DNA of 56,724 nt, filler included, from Fonticula-like sp. SCN 57-25 (Eukaryota), in assembly GCA_001724245.1 (NCBI GenBank). It is 2 parts of 2 records of this genome, joined end to end, with 100 filler letters (N's around TTAATTAATTAA, not from the genome) between each part and the next. Parts side by side here need not be neighbours in the genome. Positions count along the whole stretch, not along the records: positions 29,893 to 56,724 come from MEDX01000067.1; 1 more part is not named here. The stretch is one strand, 5' to 3'. Below, one piece after another: positions 19,333 through 53,909 of the stretch. The position numbers and the translations under genes were made by a program. Below the pieces are notes generated by a model. The model saw nothing but the letters and a program-made list of their open reading frames with translations, ran no database searches and was not told where the DNA came from. The first letter of the stretch is position 1. Each line of letters opens with the position of its first letter.

Positions 19333-20488
19333 ATGAGCATCGCGATTGCGCACGACGTGCCCGCCTGGCTGGGCGACCTCCTGCAGGAGGCGACCGGCCT
19401 TCGCGCTCTGCAAGCGTGCGCCCCTCCTCTTCCCTCTTGCATGCGTTGATAGACTGACACTTATATTTTTTGGTAGTACTCCGGGAAATAAGACGCTGTG
19501 GACTGTTTTGTGGAGCTGCTGCGCATCGCCCGGCACTCATCTGCTCCCGGCCGATTGGTCCGAGCACCAGCGAGGTGTCAACCACCTCCCTGGTATCGCA
19601 CTCTTGAGCAACAAGTATAACCTTGCGCGACTCCTGATCGGCAACCCGGTTGCCGCGAGCTTTTATCCCCGTACATGGCTGCTGCCGCTCTCCGACGTCG
19701 AATCGGTGTTTGCGGCGTGCAATGGCTCGGTCCTCCTCAAGCCGTCGGTTGGATCGCGCGGAAGGGGCATTGAGCACTACGTTTCCGCAAGCGGCCTTGC
19801 CGCGAGGATCGCCGCCGTGCCGCATCCGCTTGCCTACATCGTGCAGTCGTATGTGGACCGGCCGCTCCTCTGGGACGAGCGCAAGTTCCACCTTCGCATC
19901 TACGTCCTGATCACCGCGTTGGCTCCGACGCCGCGACTCTACGTGCATTCGAGCGGCTACGCGCGCCGCGCAAAGGCAGAGTATCGCGCGCCGCTGGCCG
20001 ACAGCACTCCCGGTGCCCACATCACCAACCTCGGGGCCGTTGAGGAGTGGGGCGCCCACGACGGCTACGACACGTTTGACAGCTTTAATGCGCTAATGGA
20101 CTCGCGCGGCTTTCCAGCCGCTCGCTTCTGGCAGCGAATTGACACCATTTTGATTGAGACTGTTTCTGCGGCTGTGCCGGGCATCCTCGCCGTGCCGACG
20201 CCGCGTCTGGACATGCGAGAGCGCCACGCTTTCGAGCTCCTCGGAGCAGATATCATCGTGGACGCGAGCGGCGCTCCGTGGCTGCTGGAGCTCAACGTCT
20301 CTCCCAGCATGGACATTGCCGCTTCGCCGATTCTGAAGCCTATAAAGTCCCGCGTACTCAGGGACACCTTTGCCGTCCTTCAAGCAACTACGCAGTGCGA
20401 CCCCAGCGAGTACATCGCGAAGGAATTTGAGGCGATGGGCGGGTACAGACGGCTGCTTCCCGCAAAGCCATTTAATACCACTGAATAA
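19333..20488 (+). CDS. Tubulin-tyrosine ligase-like (TTLL) ATP-grasp protein
   Basis: 'VNHLPG...LSNK..L', 'FYPRTWLLP', 'LKP..GSRGRGI', 'IVQSYVDRPLL...RKFHLRIYVLIT', 'HITN', 'FELLGADII.D....PWLLELNVSPS'. One 5' intron. Confidence 0.9.
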
Positions 20489-41819: not shown

Positions 41820-42266
41820 CCGACCATCAAAGCATTATTTTTATATCTTATTTGTTCAAGTTGCCTATTGCAGTATATCAAGCAGTCTTTTAATACAGTT
41901 GGTTTTCGCGGAACATTGGAGGGTGGCTGGCCGAAGGGAAGGGAAAGGCGAATTCATCGAGCGGTTTCAGAATCTAAATGAAGGGCCTCAATGGGCCTAT
42001 TCTCAGAAAGCATCCCAGAGTGCACTGTAGGGGAAGCGGCCTGCCTATACGTGGGTTTCATAGAATTGTATACGTGTTTTGCGGTATTACGTACTGCGCC
42101 CCCGTGTTTGGCGGGCTATCACCCACTATCACCTGATAATCCTGATTCGCGATCTATTGTTCGATTGTGATTGGCGGGAGCGATTCGGGTGTCCACGAAG
42201 TCGAGAATTTACGTACGTCGCGTGCGCTATTAGTGCGCCACCGTTGCCTGGTGCGCCGCCGCCGCG

Positions 42267-44748
42267 ATGCATGCCTCTGGTCCCTCTGCGGGCCACAGTC
42301 ATGCCATATCTAATCCCGGGAACGCGTCTGTGAATGGCCGCGAGAGCTCGTATGTCAAGATCAACGACGGCACGGCCGACGTGGCCGATGCTCACAAGAA
42401 GGTGGCCACGTTGCGCGGCAATGGAGCTAATCGACTCGTGGCCATTGCCGATGTGCTTGTGTGCGCGGCCGTGTGGCTTGCCGGGGCTGCGACCTATGAT
42501 GGTGAGGCCGGCAAGGACTACTACAAGGATTCCGTGATCAACTATTCTTTCTCGACGTCGCTCTTTGACGTCATGCTCTTCGCCATCGTGCGTGGCTTCC
42601 TCGTCGACACCCTCCAGTCGCGCCCCGAGCAGCTGTCTGCCAAGCGCCTCAAGTTTCTCTGGGTCATCATTGTGTCGTCGCTAGTCTTTGGCGTTGTAAA
42701 GATCTCTCTTCTCGACTGGGCTGCCTCTCCCGGCGCCACCTGGCTCTCTGCCTGCTTCATGGTGACGTTTTTCCTTTTCGGCATCGGTGAGGCGGTTGGC
42801 GCGCGCGGAGCCTCCAAGCGCATTGACCAGCTGAAGTACTACCAGGCGGTCATTGACGCCTCTCCCGCTCTGGACAAGTCGTTCAAAGGCACTGCCACTG
42901 GGCTCGGTCGTGTGCTTGCGCTCGCTCGTCCGCATCTCGGCATGCTCAGCTTCGCCATGGTTGCCCTTTTGGTGAACACGTTCTCGTCGCTCGCGCTGCC
43001 CTTTGTCGTGGGTCAGGTGGTCGATGCGCTTATTGCGCCCGAGGATGGCGATGCTATGGGCGAGCTGAACAAGTACATTTCTATTCTCCTTGTACTTTTC
43101 GCCATTGGCGCCGTGTCTGGAACAGCGCGCTCGTGGCTTTTCACGCTTGCCGGCCATCGCATCGTGTACCGTCTGCGTGCGGACGTGTTTGACTCTATTG
43201 TCAAGCAGGAGATTTCCTTCTTTGACAAGTCGCGCACCGGCGAGCTCACCAGCCGTCTCAGTTCCGACACGCAAGTCCTGCAAAACACCGCCACGGTCAA
43301 CATGTCCATGCTCATCCGCTACGTCATCCAGATCATTGGCTCCATCGTCATTCTCGTCCTCCTGTCCTGGCAGCTCTCCCTCATCATGTTTGCGACCGTC
43401 CCGGTCATCGCCATCGCCGCTGTGATCTATGGAAGGTACATGCACGGCCTGCAAAAGACCTTCCAGGACCAGCTCGCCGCGGCCACCACCGTCGCCGAAG
43501 AGGGTACGCCGCCGTTTGTTTTATTATGCTTGTAGTGCAAGTATTGACGCAAGTGTTTCATTTCCGATAGTGATCAGCAACATGCGTACTGTCCGGTCGT
43601 TCTCGAGCGAGGCGCGCACGTCTGCGCAGTACACCTCGGCTGTTGAGCAATCGTACGAGGTTGGCCGCCGCCTTTCCGGTGCCTATGGTCTGTTCCAGGG
43701 CTCGATGACGTTTATCCCGCAGGCGGCGATCGCCCTTGTTTTGTGGTGGGGCGGCACGCAGGTGATCGAGGGCGCGCTCTCCGCCGGTCTCCTGACGTCC
43801 TTTTTGCTGTACACTCTTTCGATGGCGATGGCCTTTGCCTTCCTCTCTGCTCTCTACGGCGACTTTATGGCCGCCGTCGGTGCGTCGCAGCGCCTCTTCC
43901 AGCTTCTGGACCGCGAGCCCGAGATCCCCTCGAGCGGCGGCCTCGTTCCCACGACGCCCTTTGTTGGCCACGTAGAGTTTGATCAAGTCAGCTTTGCCTA
44001 CCCGACGCGCGAGGACATTCGCGTGCTTCACGACGTGTCGCTGTCGCTGGAGCCCGGCAAGATTCTCGCGCTGGTTGGCCCCAGCGGTGGCGGCAAGAGC
44101 ACGCTGGTGGCGCTCCTGGAGCGCTTCTACGACGTGGGCACCGGCCGCATCCTCGTGGACAACCGCGACCTCCGCGAGCTGGACCCGCGCTGGTACCGCA
44201 GCCACGTTGCGCTCGTCAGCCAGGAGCCGATCCTCTTTGCCACGACGATCCGCGAAAACATTACTTTTGGCGTCTCGCGCGTCGTGACCGAGGCCGAGAT
44301 CATTGCCGCGGCCACGGCGGCCAACGCGCACAGCTTCATCTCTGGGTTCCCCGAAGGGTACGACGCCCTGGTCGGCGAGCGCGGCGTGCGTCTCTCGGGC
44401 GGGCAGAAGCAGCGCATCGCCATCGCGCGCGCTCTTATCATGAACCCCAAGGTGCTCCTGCTCGACGAGGCCACGAGTGCCCTCGACGCAGAGAGCGAGC
44501 ATCTCGTGCAGGAGGCCATCGACAGGGCGATGCAGGACAGGACTGTCATGGTCATCGCGCACAGGCTGTCGACCGTCAAGAACGCTCACTCAATCGCCGT
44601 CCTCAGTGGAGGAAAGGTCGCCGAGCGCGGCACACACGATGAGCTCATCCAGCTGGGCGGCATCTACAAGAAGCTCGTCCACAAGCAGCTCTCGGGAAAT
44701 GATGCGTCGCCCAAGGAAGAGCAAGTCAAGCTAATCGACCACGAGTAG
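42267..44748 (+). CDS. ABCB half-transporter with extra N-terminal TM domain (TAPL/ABCB9-like)
   Basis: 'QEISFFDKSRTGELTSRLSSDT', 'GPSGGGKST', 'VSQEPILF', 'GERGVRLSGGQKQRIAIARA', 'LLLDEATSALD', 'IAHRLST'. Extra N-terminal hydrophobic helices. One intron ~43504-43570. Confidence 0.9.
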
Positions 44749-46697: not shown

Positions 46698-47488
46698 TAA
46701 GGGCGAGCGTTGCGAAGCGCGGTCCTCGGAAGCAGCAGATAGCACGTGTGTGTGGGGTAGGGTCGGGCGATCACTTCAACACCCGCAAACTCAAAGGCGA
46801 GTGCTTGCGCGCCGCAGCAAAGGATTGGAAGCAAACGAAATTAAAAAGTACTAACAACAACAAGAAAAATAATGTTGGTGCGTCGTCCGGCAAACGACGA
46901 CAAAGCTGGCTCTCTGTTCCGGAGCTGCCTCCAATCCCACTTCAAAGTCAAAGTTCGGAAAACCAACTAATCAGCCTCAAAAGCACTCTCAGAGGCGGTA
47001 ACCGATCCAACAATCAGACGATCTGACCTCCACTCAAGCAAGCGTATTATCGACGCGTCGAGCAGCAGGGAAGGATTCACGAGCTAGTCGGCGCACGATG
47101 CTACCGTGGACCAAACCGAGCGTGCTTTCTTTTCTCTGCTTTTCGCCGAAAAATTCTCAAAACAACAACGGGGTGGCTGTTCCAGTCTACCTGAAATGTG
47201 ATCGAGGTCGAGCAATCGAGCCCACCCAAATTCTTTAACTACAGGCATGTGACATGGTTGTCGACAGGAGAACCTTGTCGGTCGCTCAGCATTCGCCATC
47301 TGATTCGCCAAGTCTGAAGTGACGCGTGCGTCGTCAGCAGTCAGTCAATCCTCTGTTGCTGCTCTGCTGTTTCGGCCCGTTGCTGCTGTTTCACTTGTTA
47401 AGGCCCTTAGAGAATTATTCGTGCTCTACTTGGACATCGCAAGGGGTTCCTGCTTCGTTTCCCCCTTGTTCGGTTCCGTTCTTTTGCA

Positions 47489-48439
47489 ATGCTGCCGGAC
47501 GAAGATCTCGCTGTTCCGCTGACTGATCACTACGGTCCTCGCGTGCGCTCCGTGGTCGAGAGCGTCACGTCGGACGACGTTGTTCTTGTGGGCGACCCTG
47601 CTGGGTTAGAGCAGAAGCTTGCGTCGCTTGGTCGTGCTGGTCTTGATCGCGTCAATGTTGTGAGCGACTTTGACCGCACCATCACGCGGTTCTGGAACAA
47701 TGGGCGGATGGCGTCCAGCTGCCACGGCGTCATCGACGGCTCTTCTCTTGTAAGCGACGACTTTCGTACTCGCATCAAGAACCTGTTTGACGAGTACTAC
47801 CCGCTCGAGATCTCGCCTGACCTCACCCCGGCGGCTCGCGAGGCAAAGATGGTCGAGTGGTGGTCCCGCGCTCACAACATGTACATCGAGCACGGGATTC
47901 AACTGGACCATCTCCCTTCCATGCTGAAAGAGTCAAACATTGCGCTGCGAGAGCGTGCCGACAAGGTGATTTCGGGGCTCGCCAACAACGGCGTGCCGCT
48001 CTATGTGCTCTCGGCGGGCATCTCCAACGTGATCGACCTCTTCCTGCGCCAGCACGAGCTGCACTATGAAGACCACGTCGGCATCGTCGCCAACACGATG
48101 CACTTTGGCCGCGACGGCAAGCTCGCGGGATTCAACGAGGATCTTATCCACTCGATGAACAAGAACGGGACGATGCTGTACAAGAACCCGGTCACGAGGG
48201 ACCGGCTCGACCGCGGTAAGGAGCGCGACCACTTGATATTGCTGGGCGATAATCTCATGGACGCGAAGATGCAGGAGGGAATTAAGGCGGCTGACGTAAT
48301 CAAGGTCGGATTTTTGAATGACAAGGTGAAGGAGCGCATCAATGACTACTCAAAGCTGTTCGATATCGTTGTCGTGAACGACGGCAGCATGCACGTCGTC
48401 CAGTCGATGATCGAGGCAACCAAGAACGGTGACATTTAA
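47489..48439 (+). CDS. NT5C3: Cytosolic pyrimidine/m7G 5'-nucleotidase (NT5C3 family, HAD), intronless
   Basis: 'VVSDFDRTITRF', 'YYPLEI.P', 'MVEWW...H', 'LSAGI', 'ILLGD...D..M', 'KVGFLND', 'FDIVVVND'. Confidence 0.92.
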   Translation: MLPDEDLAVPLTDHYGPRVRSVVESVTSDDVVLVGDPAGLEQKLASLGRAGLDRVNVVSDFDRTITRFWNNGRMASSCHGVIDGSSLVSDDFRTRIKNLFDEYYPLEISPDLTPAAREAKMVEWWSRAHNMYIEHGIQLDHLPSMLKESNIALRERADKVISGLANNGVPLYVLSAGISNVIDLFLRQHELHYEDHVGIVANTMHFGRDGKLAGFNEDLIHSMNKNGTMLYKNPVTRDRLDRGKERDHLILLGDNLMDAKMQEGIKAADVIKVGFLNDKVKERINDYSKLFDIVVVNDGSMHVVQSMIEATKNGDI

Positions 48440-49710: not shown

Positions 49711-49837
49711 CGTGATCGCTGGCGGGCAATTACAGTCTGGGCTAGATTCTGGCACTGAACTGTGAAATCAACGGCGGATTCAGCCCCAGATTCCAGCCGA
49801 CCGCGTGCTGTTGACCCGAGGGACCCTCTCTCCGAAA

Positions 49838-51105
49838 ATGCTGCGCCATGCGCTGCTGCGTGGTGCTCGGTTGAGCGCGACCGCCTTCCCCACGACTGCG
49901 CCGGTCTCTTCGCGTGCCCTCTTTTCGCGCGGCTTCTCTGTGGCCGCTCGCGCGCCTGTCGTGCCGTTTGTTGCTGGCCGCCGGCAACTTTCCGATGCGC
50001 CCGCCGCGCCCGCCGCGTCGGTGCCGGTGCCTCTTCCGGCGAGCGATGCTGTGGTCGACGCCACTCTGACGCCCATGCTTACTGACGTTGTTGCTCGCGG
50101 CGACCTTGCGTCTCTTGGCCTTGCGTCGATTTACACTCCGGTTGGCTGGATCCAGAACGCGCTCGAGGTTCTCCACGTGAGCGCCGGGCTTTCGTGGGCG
50201 GGATCGGTGGTGGCGCTCACTGTCGGGATCCGTTTCTTCCTTTTGCCGCTTGTTGTGAAGCAGATGAAGACGGCCGCGCGCCTTGCCGATATGAAGCCCG
50301 AGCTTGAGCAGATTCAGGCCGAGAGCCGGCGAGCGTACGAGAGCGGCGACGCGACTCAAATGAACATGATTCAGACCAAGATCGCGGGCCTGTACCGCAA
50401 GCACCAGGTGAACCCGCTGTCCATGTTGATGCCGGCACTTGCCCAGATGCCCGTGTTCGTTAGCGCGTTTATGGGCCTGCGCAAGCTGAGCGAGCTGCAC
50501 CTCGATTCGTTCGCGGTTACCGGCGGGCCGCTCTCCCTGTTCGTCGATAACCTCGCCGACCCGAGCATGGCCTTTGTGGCCATCAACACGGCGCTCTTCC
50601 TTGCCGCGTTTGAGATTGGCGCCGACACGGGCCAGCAGAAGATGGAGCCCAAGATGAAGAACATCATGCGCGTCGTCATTACGGCGTCGGGCATCTTTAC
50701 GTACCAGCTGCCGACGCTCGTGCTCGTCTACTGGATGGCGTCAAGCTCCTTCTCGCTTGCCCAGGCCGGCGCCCTCCGCTACATTGCGCCGCTCAGAGCG
50801 GCGCTCGGCATCCCGCCCGTCCCCAAGCACGACTCGCAGGGTACGCACGCTCTTTGCGCCCTTCTTTTTATTCTGACGGCGATGGTGCAGCACCCAGCGT
50901 GACTGAGCAGTTTGGGTCGTCCGTGACGGCGCGCCAGCTGCAGCAGGACCAGGCGAACGCGCGTCTTGCTGCCAAGAAGAGGAAGGAGCAGATCCTCAAG
51001 GAGGGGCCAAAGCCGCTCCTCGACCAGAAGCCAACAAAGGCGCAGGTCCTCGCGTACCTCGCGGAGCTCGAGGCCGCCGAGGCAAAGCAGTCGAAAAAGA
51101 AGTGA
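49838..51105 (+). CDS. OXA1: Mitochondrial insertase Oxa1
   Basis: Arg-rich presequence, 'TPVGWIQNALE.LH...GLSW..S...LTV.IR..L.PL', 'QMPVFVSAFMGLRK', 'YW..SS.FSL.Q', basic C-tail. Confidence 0.92.
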
Positions 51106-51421
51106 AAAGGTTACATTCGCTTTTTTGAAATTTAAGCAAAACATACGATTCTTTCGCAGTATATCTTGTACATAATACATAACCATCCTCCTCTAGAGTA
51201 ATGGCATAAGTCCAGGTGGCATGATAAGGGTATGTGATTAATAGCATACGTTTTAGTATGCAGTTCAATGTGGTTGTTATATTTGTCACCTGAGAAATGC
51301 CTGCCCGTGTTGCCAATAGCCCCTTGATTAGATCCGCAGCATGGTTTCTGCATCAATCAGCCCCTGATTCAACCCAAAACAACCGAAATCAACCCCAGAT
51401 TGCACGTGATCTCGTCGTTGT

Positions 51422-53726
51422 ATGACGATGTGGCGCGCCACGGCCGCCACCGCGCTTTGGCGTTCCCGCGCAGCCCCGCCATCCTTCCCCGTGGGCTCCC
51501 GCGGCTTGTTACACGCATACATGGCGTCGGAACCGCGCTTTGAGCTCGACGGCTCCTTTCTCTCCTCGTACGCCGATCGCGACCCCAACTTTGGTCTGAA
51601 CGGCCTGGGCGAGTTCGTCTACTACCGCACATATGCGCGCCGCAAGGACGACGGGACGCTCGAGTCATGGTGCGCGTCTTTCGCAATATAGGACCTTTTG
51701 TTCTCTTTTACTCACATTTCTTTTCCTTTCCGGTTTAGGGCGGACACTGTTGGCCGCGTAGTGAACGGCACCTTTCTCATGCAGCAGGAGTGGATTGAGC
51801 GTCATCGCCTGGGCTGGGATGCGGCTCGCGCGCAGCGCTCTGCCCAGCGCATGTACGATGATATTTTCAGCATGCGTTTCCTCCCGCCCGGACGCGGCCT
51901 GTGGGCGATGGGGACGCCCGTGACGCGTGATCGCCGCCTCTTTGCCGCGCTCAACAACTGCGCGTTCGTCTCTACGCGGCCGGGCCTCGTGGGCGAGAGC
52001 GCATCGACCCCGTACTCCTTTCTGATGGACATGTCCATGCTCGGCGTCGGCGTTGGGTTTGACACTGCGGGCGCCGGCAAGGTGCTTGTGCGCGGCATGG
52101 ACGCCTCTGCTCCGCCGCGCGTCGTGCGGATTGCTGACTCGCGCGAAGGGTGGGTGCACTCCCTCGCTGCCCTGATCGACGCCCACATTGAAGGAACAGC
52201 GCGCCCCCACTTTGACTACTCGCTAGTCCGCGCCAAGGGTCTCCCTATCAAGGGCTTTGGCGGCCTTGCGAGCGGCCCTGCACCTCTCGCTGAGCTGCAC
52301 ACCTCGGTGGACGCGGCGCTGTCCCGCGTGGCCGGCTCGCACTTGGACGAGCGCACCATCGTCGACATCATGAACATGATTGGCCGGTGCGTTGTGTCGG
52401 GGAATGTGCGCCGGACGGCCGAGATCGCCTTTGGCTCGCCCGACTCTGAGACGTACATTGACCTCAAGAACTATGAGCGTTTCCCCGAGCGCGCGTCGTA
52501 CGGGTGGACGAGCAACAACTCTGTGTTTGCGACGCTCGGCATGAAGTATGACGACATTTGCCGGCGGGTGGAGGCCAACGGGGAGCCGGGCTTCTTTTGG
52601 CTCGAGAACGCGCAGCGGTACGGGCGGATGGGCGACCCGCCAAACAACAAGGACATGCGGGCCATGGGCGGGAACCCATGCCTCGAGCAGACGCTCGAGC
52701 CATTCGAGCTGTGCTGCCTCGTCGAAACCTTCCCGTTTAGGCACGAAAACATTAAGCAGTACAAGGCCACGCTCAAGAGCGCCTACCTCTACGCAAAGAC
52801 TGTCACGCTCGGGCAGACACACTGGACCCAGAGCAACAGGGTCATGCTTAGGAACAGGCGAGTTGGCGCGAGCATGAGCGGCATTGCGCAGTTTGTCGCC
52901 AAGAACGGGATGGAGACGCTCAGGGAGTGGTGCGACGAGGGATACAAGCAGATTGAAAAGACAGACGAGAGCGTCAGCGAGTGGCTCGCAATCCCAAAGT
53001 CAATCAAGACAACATCTATCAAGCCGTCGGGCACAGTCTCGCTCCTTGCTGGAGGTACGAATATTAAATATTTGTGCGCATTTGGCGTCTTATCTTTCTT
53101 CATTTTGTTCTGGTTTTGCTGATTGTGTAGTCTCGTTGGTACTCTTTTTTGTCTTGGTATTTGAACCCCGTTTACTGCCTTACTAACGTGCCCTAGCGAC
53201 CCCCGGTATGCACTTCCCCGAGAGCCGCTTCTGCATCCGCCGCGTCCGCGTTGGCCGCGACTCTGAGCTTGTTCCCTGCCTCGAGGCTGCGGGCCTTCCG
53301 CTTGAGCCGGCCGTCGACGACGAGCGCACGCTTGTCGTCGAGTTCCCCATCGACAACGGCGCGAATGTGCGGTCTGTTCACGAAGTGTCCATGTGGGAGC
53401 AGCTCTCGCTCGCCGCCTTTTTGCAGCGTTACTGGTCCGACAACCAGGTCAGCTGCACAGTCACCTTTGACCCGGAGCGCGAGGCGCGCGACCTGCCGAG
53501 GGCGCTCGACGTCTTCCAGTACCAGCTCAAGGGCGTCAGCTTTTTGCCTCGCCTGGAGCAGGGCGCGTACAAGCAGATGCCGCTCGAGGCGATTTCAGAG
53601 GAAGAGTACAAGAGGAGAGTTGCGAGTATCAAGCGAATCCAGTTCCCGAATATGCCCATCGCAGAGATGGCCACGAGGAGCATGCCAAACAAGTTTTGCG
53701 ATAATGATTCGTGCGGGCTCGAGTAG
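51422..53726 (+). CDS. nrdJ: Class II adenosylcobalamin-dependent ribonucleoside-triphosphate reductase (monomeric NrdJ/RTPR type), 3 exons
   Basis: 'GEFVYYRTYAR', 'FLPPGRGLWAMG', 'LNNCAF', 'MLGVGVGFD', 'DSREGWV', 'VVSGNVRRTAEI', thiyl-radical motif 'GGNPCLEQ', 'ELCCLVE', 'TSIKPSGTVSLLAG|ATPG', 'WSDNQVSCT', C-terminal 'FCDNDSC'. Introns 51670-51738 and 53055-53196. Confidence 0.95.
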
Positions 53727-53880: not shown

Positions 53881-53909
53881 NNNNNNNNNNNNNNNNNNNN
53901 NNNNNNNNN
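53881..53909. other. Assembly gap (29 N)
   Basis: Run of N between the convergent nrdJ and Acinus 3' ends. Confidence 0.95.

Follow-up and report, generated by a model that had tools for sequence, protein, structure and literature searches.

An intron-containing class II ribonucleotide reductase with a putative mitochondrial presequence in Fonticula-like sp. SCN 57-25

Where in a eukaryotic cell could a vitamin B12-dependent ribonucleotide reductase (RNR) do its work? In the textbook view, mitochondria obtain their deoxyribonucleoside triphosphates (dNTPs) by import or salvage, ribonucleotide reduction being cytosolic, and the claimed RNR activity of mitochondria is still controversial. The question is raised by a gene at positions 51422-53726, on the + strand, of a 56,724-nt stretch of DNA (hereafter the window; two joined parts of assembly GCA_001724245.1) from Fonticula-like sp. 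SCN 57-25. This is a three-exon nuclear gene for a 697-residue monomeric RTPR-type class II (adenosylcobalamin, AdoCbl) RNR, or NrdJ, and its product carries, ahead of the conserved fold, 33 residues that resemble a mitochondrial presequence. Judged from sequence features, mitochondrial targeting of this NrdJ is plausible, looks like a clade-wide trait and is the reading towards which we lean.

The spliced coding sequence spans 2094 nt, that is, 697 codons and a TAG stop. Exon 1 (51422-51669, + strand, as are all features of the gene) encodes the N-terminal extension and the start of the RNR_Alpha domain and ends in phase 2; exon 2 (51739-53054) encodes the remainder of RNR_Alpha together with the RNR-II insertion (monomer) domain and contains the motifs NNC, NPC-E and ELCC; and exon 3 (53197-53726) encodes the C-terminal Cys-x4-Cys (Cys689, Cys694) and ends at the TAG stop. 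The two spliceosomal introns proposed in the initial annotation hold up, both having canonical GT..AG borders and leaving a spliced frame that is open over 697 codons: intron 1 (51670-51738) has 69 nt and reads GTGCGC..TTTAG, and intron 2 (53055-53196) has 142 nt and reads GTACGA..CCCTAG, with a branch-point-like TACTAAC box at 53181-53187, 9 nt 5' of the acceptor. The introns are AT-rich, with a GC content of 0.41 and 0.38, respectively, versus 0.62-0.63 in the exons. Upstream, an in-frame TGA (51407-51409, +) lies 12 nt 5' of the first ATG and closes the frame, and since no AG stands between this TGA and the ATG, the frame is not extendable upstream without cutting into the extension.

The same annotation had described a complete monomeric NrdJ-type enzyme, and this too is borne out by domain and structure matches and by the presence of all the catalytic cysteine motifs. 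Pfam RNR_Alpha (PF17975) is matched by exon 1 (E 2.5e-07, profile positions 1-40) and by exon 2 (E 1.5e-19, positions 44-101), and the insertion domain RNR-II_ins_dom (PF21995) at E 1.3e-15. The NCBIfam model TIGR02505 (RTPR) matches exons 2 and 3, the latter over profile positions 527-723 of 724, with 221.7 and 65.2 bits, these being exon-by-exon scores, each of them on its own below the whole-protein cut-off of 340 bits. The motifs begin at residues 155 (NNCAF), 395 (NPCLEQ), 406 (ELCCLVE) and 689 (CDNDSC) of the spliced protein and supply Cys157, Cys397 with Glu399, Cys408 and the C-terminal pair Cys689/Cys694; the roles that we assign below to Cys157, Cys397/Glu399 and Cys408 are presumed from the literature on the family. 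The ribonucleoside-triphosphate reductase of Lactobacillus leichmannii (RTPR; PDB 1L1L) is matched at E 2.3e-61 in three aligned stretches, which bring the NNC, NPC-E and E-x-C motifs into register, and shares with the window protein the monomeric class II fold with its insertion domain and the C-terminal cysteine pair. It differs in that the window protein is distant from it, nuclear and intron-bearing, and has 33 additional N-terminal residues without counterpart in the solved chain. By BLASTP, residues 39-697 are 60.8% identical to the bacterial homologue P0022, and residues 30-696 are 69.7% identical to the nearest relative, P0005. The ESM Atlas was of no help on taxon or function, as exon 2 retrieved phage fragment clusters only and the neighbouring Dis3 gene only the label 'Eukaryota'.

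The N-terminal extension, Met1 to Tyr33, occupies 33 codons (51422-51520, +) and ends just before a third in-frame ATG (Met34, 51521-51523, +) that is aligned with the start position of the bacterial homologues; a second in-frame ATG, at 51428 (+), lies inside the extension. Residue 50 of the 1L1L chain aligns with the second residue of exon 2, which places the start of the solved enzyme at about residue 36 of the window protein, and the 33 residues thus stand before the start point of both the bacterial homologues and 1L1L, outside the conserved fold. The initial annotation had noted an extension of about 33 residues free of acidic residues and followed by a further Met at 51521, and the sequence agrees: it has four Arg but neither Lys, Asp nor Glu, the first acidic residue coming at position 37. 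The base composition of the extension is that of the coding region, with a GC content of 0.71 and a third-position GC content (GC3) of 0.82, versus a GC3 of 0.80-0.82 in exons 2 and 3, while GC content is 0.38-0.42 in the two introns, in the 3' flank and over 300 nt on the 5' side. The climb in GC is located at 51420, where values of 0.5-0.57 give way to 0.7-0.8. If the mRNA includes them, the ATGs at 51422 and 51428 come before that at 51521, with no other ATG in between; the base at -3 is T (weak) for ATG 51422, A for ATG 51428 and T for ATG 51521. Acid-free stretches of 33 residues with at least four Arg or Lys make up 45 of the 4084 in-frame protein windows of this DNA (1.1%). Close to the end of the extension, R27-G28-L29-L30 forms a loose R-2/R-3 pattern, and R27-G28-L29 is a possible site for the mitochondrial processing peptidase (MPP), whose motif is an Arg at -2 or -3, a definition of low information content. 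As an internal example of the presequences of this organism we used the N-terminus of the Oxa1/YidC-type inner-membrane insertase encoded just upstream (about 49838-51105, +; PF02096, E 1.9e-27), which is rich in Arg, Ala, Ser, Thr and Pro, free of acidic residues, and reads R-G-F-S where NrdJ has R-G-L-L. Two other destinations were considered for the extension and set aside: an endoplasmic reticulum (ER) signal peptide, for which it has no hydrophobic core, and the peroxisome, as the protein has no C-terminal peroxisomal tripeptide.

Among the 120 best matches to exon 2, out of 8000 scored, at most 20 residues precede a conserved anchor in 103 and at least 29 in 14, the window protein included, the remaining three rows being truncated. 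A first tree of 35 rows, thinned at 85% identity and with five truncated rows dropped, contains a starred split (97) that parts 18 short-N rows from 17 rows including all 14 extended ones. Further long forms were then added by a profile search with 12 eukaryote-side rows, and a second tree was built by a quick method from 53 rows (29 eukaryote-side, 18 thinned short-N and six distant bacterial sequences as the outgroup that gave the root). In this tree the 29 eukaryote-side rows, the window protein among them, form one group with an SH-aLRT value of 94. Eukaryotes named in the clade are Thecamoeba quadrilineata, Rigifila ramosa, Balamuthia mandrillaris, a Filamoeba cluster, Luapelamoeba hula and Cafeteria roenbergensis; the window protein itself falls among environmental and EukProt sequences rather than beside any named taxon. 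An extension of at least 26 residues is present in 26 of the 29, the three exceptions being P0006 (a truncated row), P0031 (13 residues) and P0005 (20 residues). Over all 211 rows, extensions reach at least 29 residues in 25, are at most 20 residues long in 181 and measure 26 residues in one, and the anchor is absent in four.

Of 22 rows that start with Met and have an extension of at least 29 residues, 15 have at least three Arg or Lys and at most one Asp or Glu in their first 25 residues, and 16 are without an acidic residue before position 30. The latter criterion was chosen after the data had been seen, and replaced the former because five of 12 other N-termini in the window pass the 25-residue test. 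By the acid-free criterion, none of the 181 short-N, bacterial-type rows qualifies; the marine bacterial RTPR-type NrdJ proteins (656-676 residues; P0022, P0017) are 60-65% identical to the window protein over exon 2 for the rows listed, yet start 1-9 residues before the conserved anchor. As further controls, 531 of 16357 windows of 29 residues in the mature cores are acid-free (3.2%), as are six of 118 Dis3 N-termini before position 30. The extension sequences of the homologues vary from row to row while the acid-free, basic start recurs, a pattern as in the evolution of targeting peptides. The search for similar extensions in other eukaryotic copies, which the initial annotation had called for, thus finds them in 26 of 29 eukaryote-side rows, mostly presequence-like. 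Extensions of this kind look typical of the whole eukaryote-side clade and not peculiar to the window gene, which adds weight to the presequence reading and is its strongest line of evidence.

Two further observations concern the homologues. An acidic motif, Asp-rich and followed by T-F-I-S/T-S-Q-S-E, is conserved in P0039, P0018, P0029, P0412 (Cafeteria), P0428 and P0267, which belong to one eukaryotic sub-clade; its place is after the presequence-like start and ahead of the catalytic core, and the window protein lacks it. A search of representative sequences, of which the best 150 of 4186 matches were inspected, was of use for a qualitative look only, the anchor pattern having failed on 89 of the 150 rows; many of these 150 are 800-2000 residues long and match in two to four separate stretches, which is what one would expect of bacterial or phage NrdJ with inteins.

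Several findings weigh against mitochondrial targeting, some of them through the support for the clade and the presequence pattern, others through the translation of the extension itself. The SH-aLRT value of 94 lies below the 95 mark of the tool, and the tree is a quick one that came with composition warnings. Of the 22 extended homologues, six do have an acidic residue before position 30, P0029 and P0450 being clearly not presequence-like, and acidic low-complexity extensions occur in some of the best 150 representatives. The 25-residue test, as stated above, is also passed by five of 12 other N-termini in the window. The maximal hydrophobic moment of the extension, 0.51 in a 14-residue window, is reached by 464 of 2000 shuffles, although this test is uninformative because the Oxa1-type positive control also fails it (707 of 2000 shuffles). 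Among the contigs matching the locus, there were no splice joints and no 5' transcript ends: one set comprised seven DNA-like pieces, six of them at least 99% alike, with three on non-coding flank and one crossing the boundary of exon 1 and intron 1, and a second set held only diverged pieces of the conserved parts of relatives.

An alternative reading is that translation starts at Met34 (ATG 51521), the 99 nt upstream being a GC-rich 5' untranslated region (5' UTR) or not transcribed, and that the enzyme is cytosolic, as in the classical view of the Euglena-type class II RNR. Met34 is aligned not only with the start of the bacterial homologues, but also with Met16 of the sister protein P0005 (about 70% identity), whose called N-terminus is short, acidic and not presequence-like. 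Moreover, acid-free, basic windows of 33 residues account for 2086 of 11002 (19%) off-frame and antisense translations of the GC-rich DNA of this genome, so that a GC-rich 5' UTR could mimic a presequence and composition alone is not proof. The codon log-odds of the 99-nt extension, 0.10 versus 0.16 and -0.49, single out no frame, and the region 5' of the Oxa1 ATG is likewise GC-rich (0.57-0.65), showing that non-coding DNA here can reach a GC content of about 0.6. Against a start at Met34 stand the GC3 of the extension and the sharp rise in GC exactly at 51420, the two in-frame ATGs, which follow closely on a stop codon, and the more favourable base at -3 of ATG 51428; and, with 26 of 29 eukaryote-side rows extended, an unextended eukaryotic copy would be the exception. 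We consider this reading unlikely. A compromise, raised in the initial annotation, would be dual localisation, in which long precursors from ATG 51422 or 51428 are mitochondrial, while leaky scanning or an internal transcription start yields a short form from ATG 51521 that is cytosolic. The Met kept exactly at the ancestral start in both the window protein and P0005, and the weak context of ATG 51422, would suit such an arrangement; however, the A at -3 of ATG 51428 means that the ribosome would have to pass two ATGs, and the other extended homologues that were read have no Met at the bacterial start position, so that it is not a feature of the clade. The two-isoform idea is unsupported, and we give it little credence. 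It could also be that the extension is translated and serves a non-mitochondrial purpose: it might be a disordered tail, act in regulation or as a degron, or direct the protein to another compartment. Its amphipathicity does not exceed that of shuffles, it offers only R-G-L and no clear canonical MPP motif, and several homologues carry very long extensions (80-156 residues), Ser/Thr-rich or acidic, that go beyond a simple presequence. This is difficult to reconcile with the lack of the ER and peroxisomal features mentioned above, with the acid-free, Arg-rich start of 16 of 22 rows despite their differing sequences, and with the six named relatives being, as we take from general knowledge, plastid-less heterotrophs; an explanation of this kind appears very improbable.

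Mitochondrial targeting, the reading preferred here, can be cast as a model that takes as given the gene model, the family membership and motifs, where the extension lies, what it is composed of and that it recurs among eukaryotic relatives, and in which we infer translation from the first ATGs, import, the cleavage site, cofactor supply and the substrate. In this opisthokont-like, presumably plastid-less microbe, a precursor would be translated from ATG 51422 or 51428, and its first 30 residues or so would act as a cleavable matrix-targeting presequence, imported by the presequence pathway. Cleavage may occur near R27-G28, leaving a mature enzyme that begins at about residues 29-34, where the bacterial homologues start, and the mature monomer would then work in the mitochondrial matrix. 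Animal mitochondria both produce AdoCbl and use it, for methylmalonyl-CoA mutase, and a matrix location is proposed because B12 trafficking of this type places AdoCbl synthesis in the organelle; the adenosyltransferase that serves the mutase could supply the reductase as well. From what is known of the family, homolysis of AdoCbl would generate a thiyl radical on Cys397 of the NPC motif, reduction of ribonucleotides, probably triphosphates, would oxidise the Cys157/Cys408 pair, and the Cys689/Cys694 pair would re-reduce the active-site cysteines with thioredoxin. The insertion domain would stand in for the dimer interface as the specificity site; the role of this monomer insert is described in passages of PMC3019208. 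The mitochondrial AdoCbl system of animals (MMAB, MMAA and methylmalonyl-CoA mutase) offers a parallel, in that an AdoCbl-dependent enzyme bears an N-terminal presequence, although its enzyme family is unrelated to NrdJ. In the passages of PMC3901258 that were matched, MUT is named as mitochondrial and the MMAA of Euglena is given a putative mitochondrial signal of 41 residues.

The model could be carried further, to the proposal that monomeric class II RNRs are organellar throughout their eukaryotic clade: a bacterial NTP (ribonucleoside triphosphate) reductase, acquired early, would have gained a presequence and would make dNTPs de novo in the mitochondrial matrix with local AdoCbl, in Amoebozoa, CRuMs, stramenopiles and an opisthokont-like lineage. 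We put this forward tentatively, as a possibility that is rather doubtful at present. If the targeting is real, such a single-subunit, B12-dependent NTP reductase, equipped with a presequence in many lineages of protists, would offer a concrete, testable candidate for an organellar route of ribonucleotide reduction, and be a second client of AdoCbl in the compartment where the cofactor is made. It would give eukaryotic class II RNRs a role and tie B12 auxotrophy to the maintenance of mitochondrial DNA. Were it to hold for the entire clade, the supply of precursors for mitochondrial DNA would depend neither on the cell cycle nor on class I RNR, and the failure of the Dictyostelium class II enzyme to rescue class I inhibition would be accounted for. 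Should targeting be refuted, the gene would be an ordinary further example of the patchily distributed eukaryotic NrdJ.

Class II RNRs are already known in eukaryotes, and the window gene in itself is a further member of a known family. Passages of published work place monomeric class II RNRs in Euglena gracilis, Dictyostelium discoideum, Phytophthora, Monosiga, Fonticula and non-Dikarya fungi (PMC3019208, PMC3605638, PMC8085122), and also in Nannochloropsis (PMC3566019) and Anaeramoeba (PMC11550330). As far as these passages go, the known eukaryotic enzymes share with the window protein the family, a bacterial origin, a patchy distribution and the monomer insert, and the role of the Dictyostelium NrdJ beside its class I enzyme is called 'enigmatic' (PMC3605638). 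Within the passages of all five papers that matched term searches, neither a targeting extension nor a subcellular location is given for NrdJ. No report of an organelle-targeted class II RNR was found in the full-text literature, a scope that takes in neither supplements, such as mitochondrial proteomes, nor Torrents et al. (2006) on Euglena. Unlike the gene itself, the clade-wide presequence pattern is apparently unreported.

That the gene is integrated in a nuclear genome and is not bacterial contamination, as first proposed, is upheld by its introns and its eukaryotic gene neighbours. Contamination is ruled out by these and by the shared GC3, which is 0.80-0.82 in NrdJ and 0.73 in the near neighbours. 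The Oxa1-type gene, with a probable short intron near 50840-50890, ends 316 nt upstream of NrdJ, and other eukaryotic genes nearby encode DOCK, Dis3/Rrp44 and PRMT3-like proteins. Downstream, a run of 29 N at 53881-53909 begins 155 nt past the NrdJ stop, so that the genes beyond it are linked by scaffolding only. The best matches of Dis3, in a search of proteins of at least 1015 residues, reach only about 45% identity and belong to a chytrid, zoopagomycetes, a choanoflagellate and fish; going by the Dis3 sequence, the organism is opisthokont-like, with no close sequenced relative among these matches.

A few features of the neighbourhood deserve mention in their own right. Two genes 5' of NrdJ lies a gene for a UMPH-1 pyrimidine 5'-nucleotidase (47411-48439, +; E 1.2e-69), a second nucleotide-metabolism gene near NrdJ. 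Further upstream, an ABC half-transporter (ABC_membrane and ABC_tran; 42234-44748, +) shows in its N-terminal region weak similarity to the cholesterol-capturing MENTAL membrane domain (E 1.3e-07), and its two overlapping open reading frames indicate an intron or a frame change near 43430-43535. A gene of the tubulin-tyrosine-ligase (TTL) family (19337-20488, +; E 5.3e-38) suggests an organism with cilia or flagella.

Finally, the 9-mer CCCCWGATT occurs exactly three times on the + strand of the 56.7-kb window, at 49784-49792, 51361-51369 and 51393-51401, where 0.51 copies are expected and none of 100 shuffles reaches three; with one mismatch allowed there is no enrichment in the window (11 found versus 17.9 expected). 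All three copies stand just 5' of the Oxa1-type gene and NrdJ, one of them 46-54 nt ahead of the Oxa1 ATG and the other two 53-61 and 21-29 nt ahead of the NrdJ ATG at 51422, and their flanks are alike (ATCA-x-CCCCAGATT-x-CA). The 9-mer may be a promoter or 5' UTR element shared by two genes for mitochondrial proteins.

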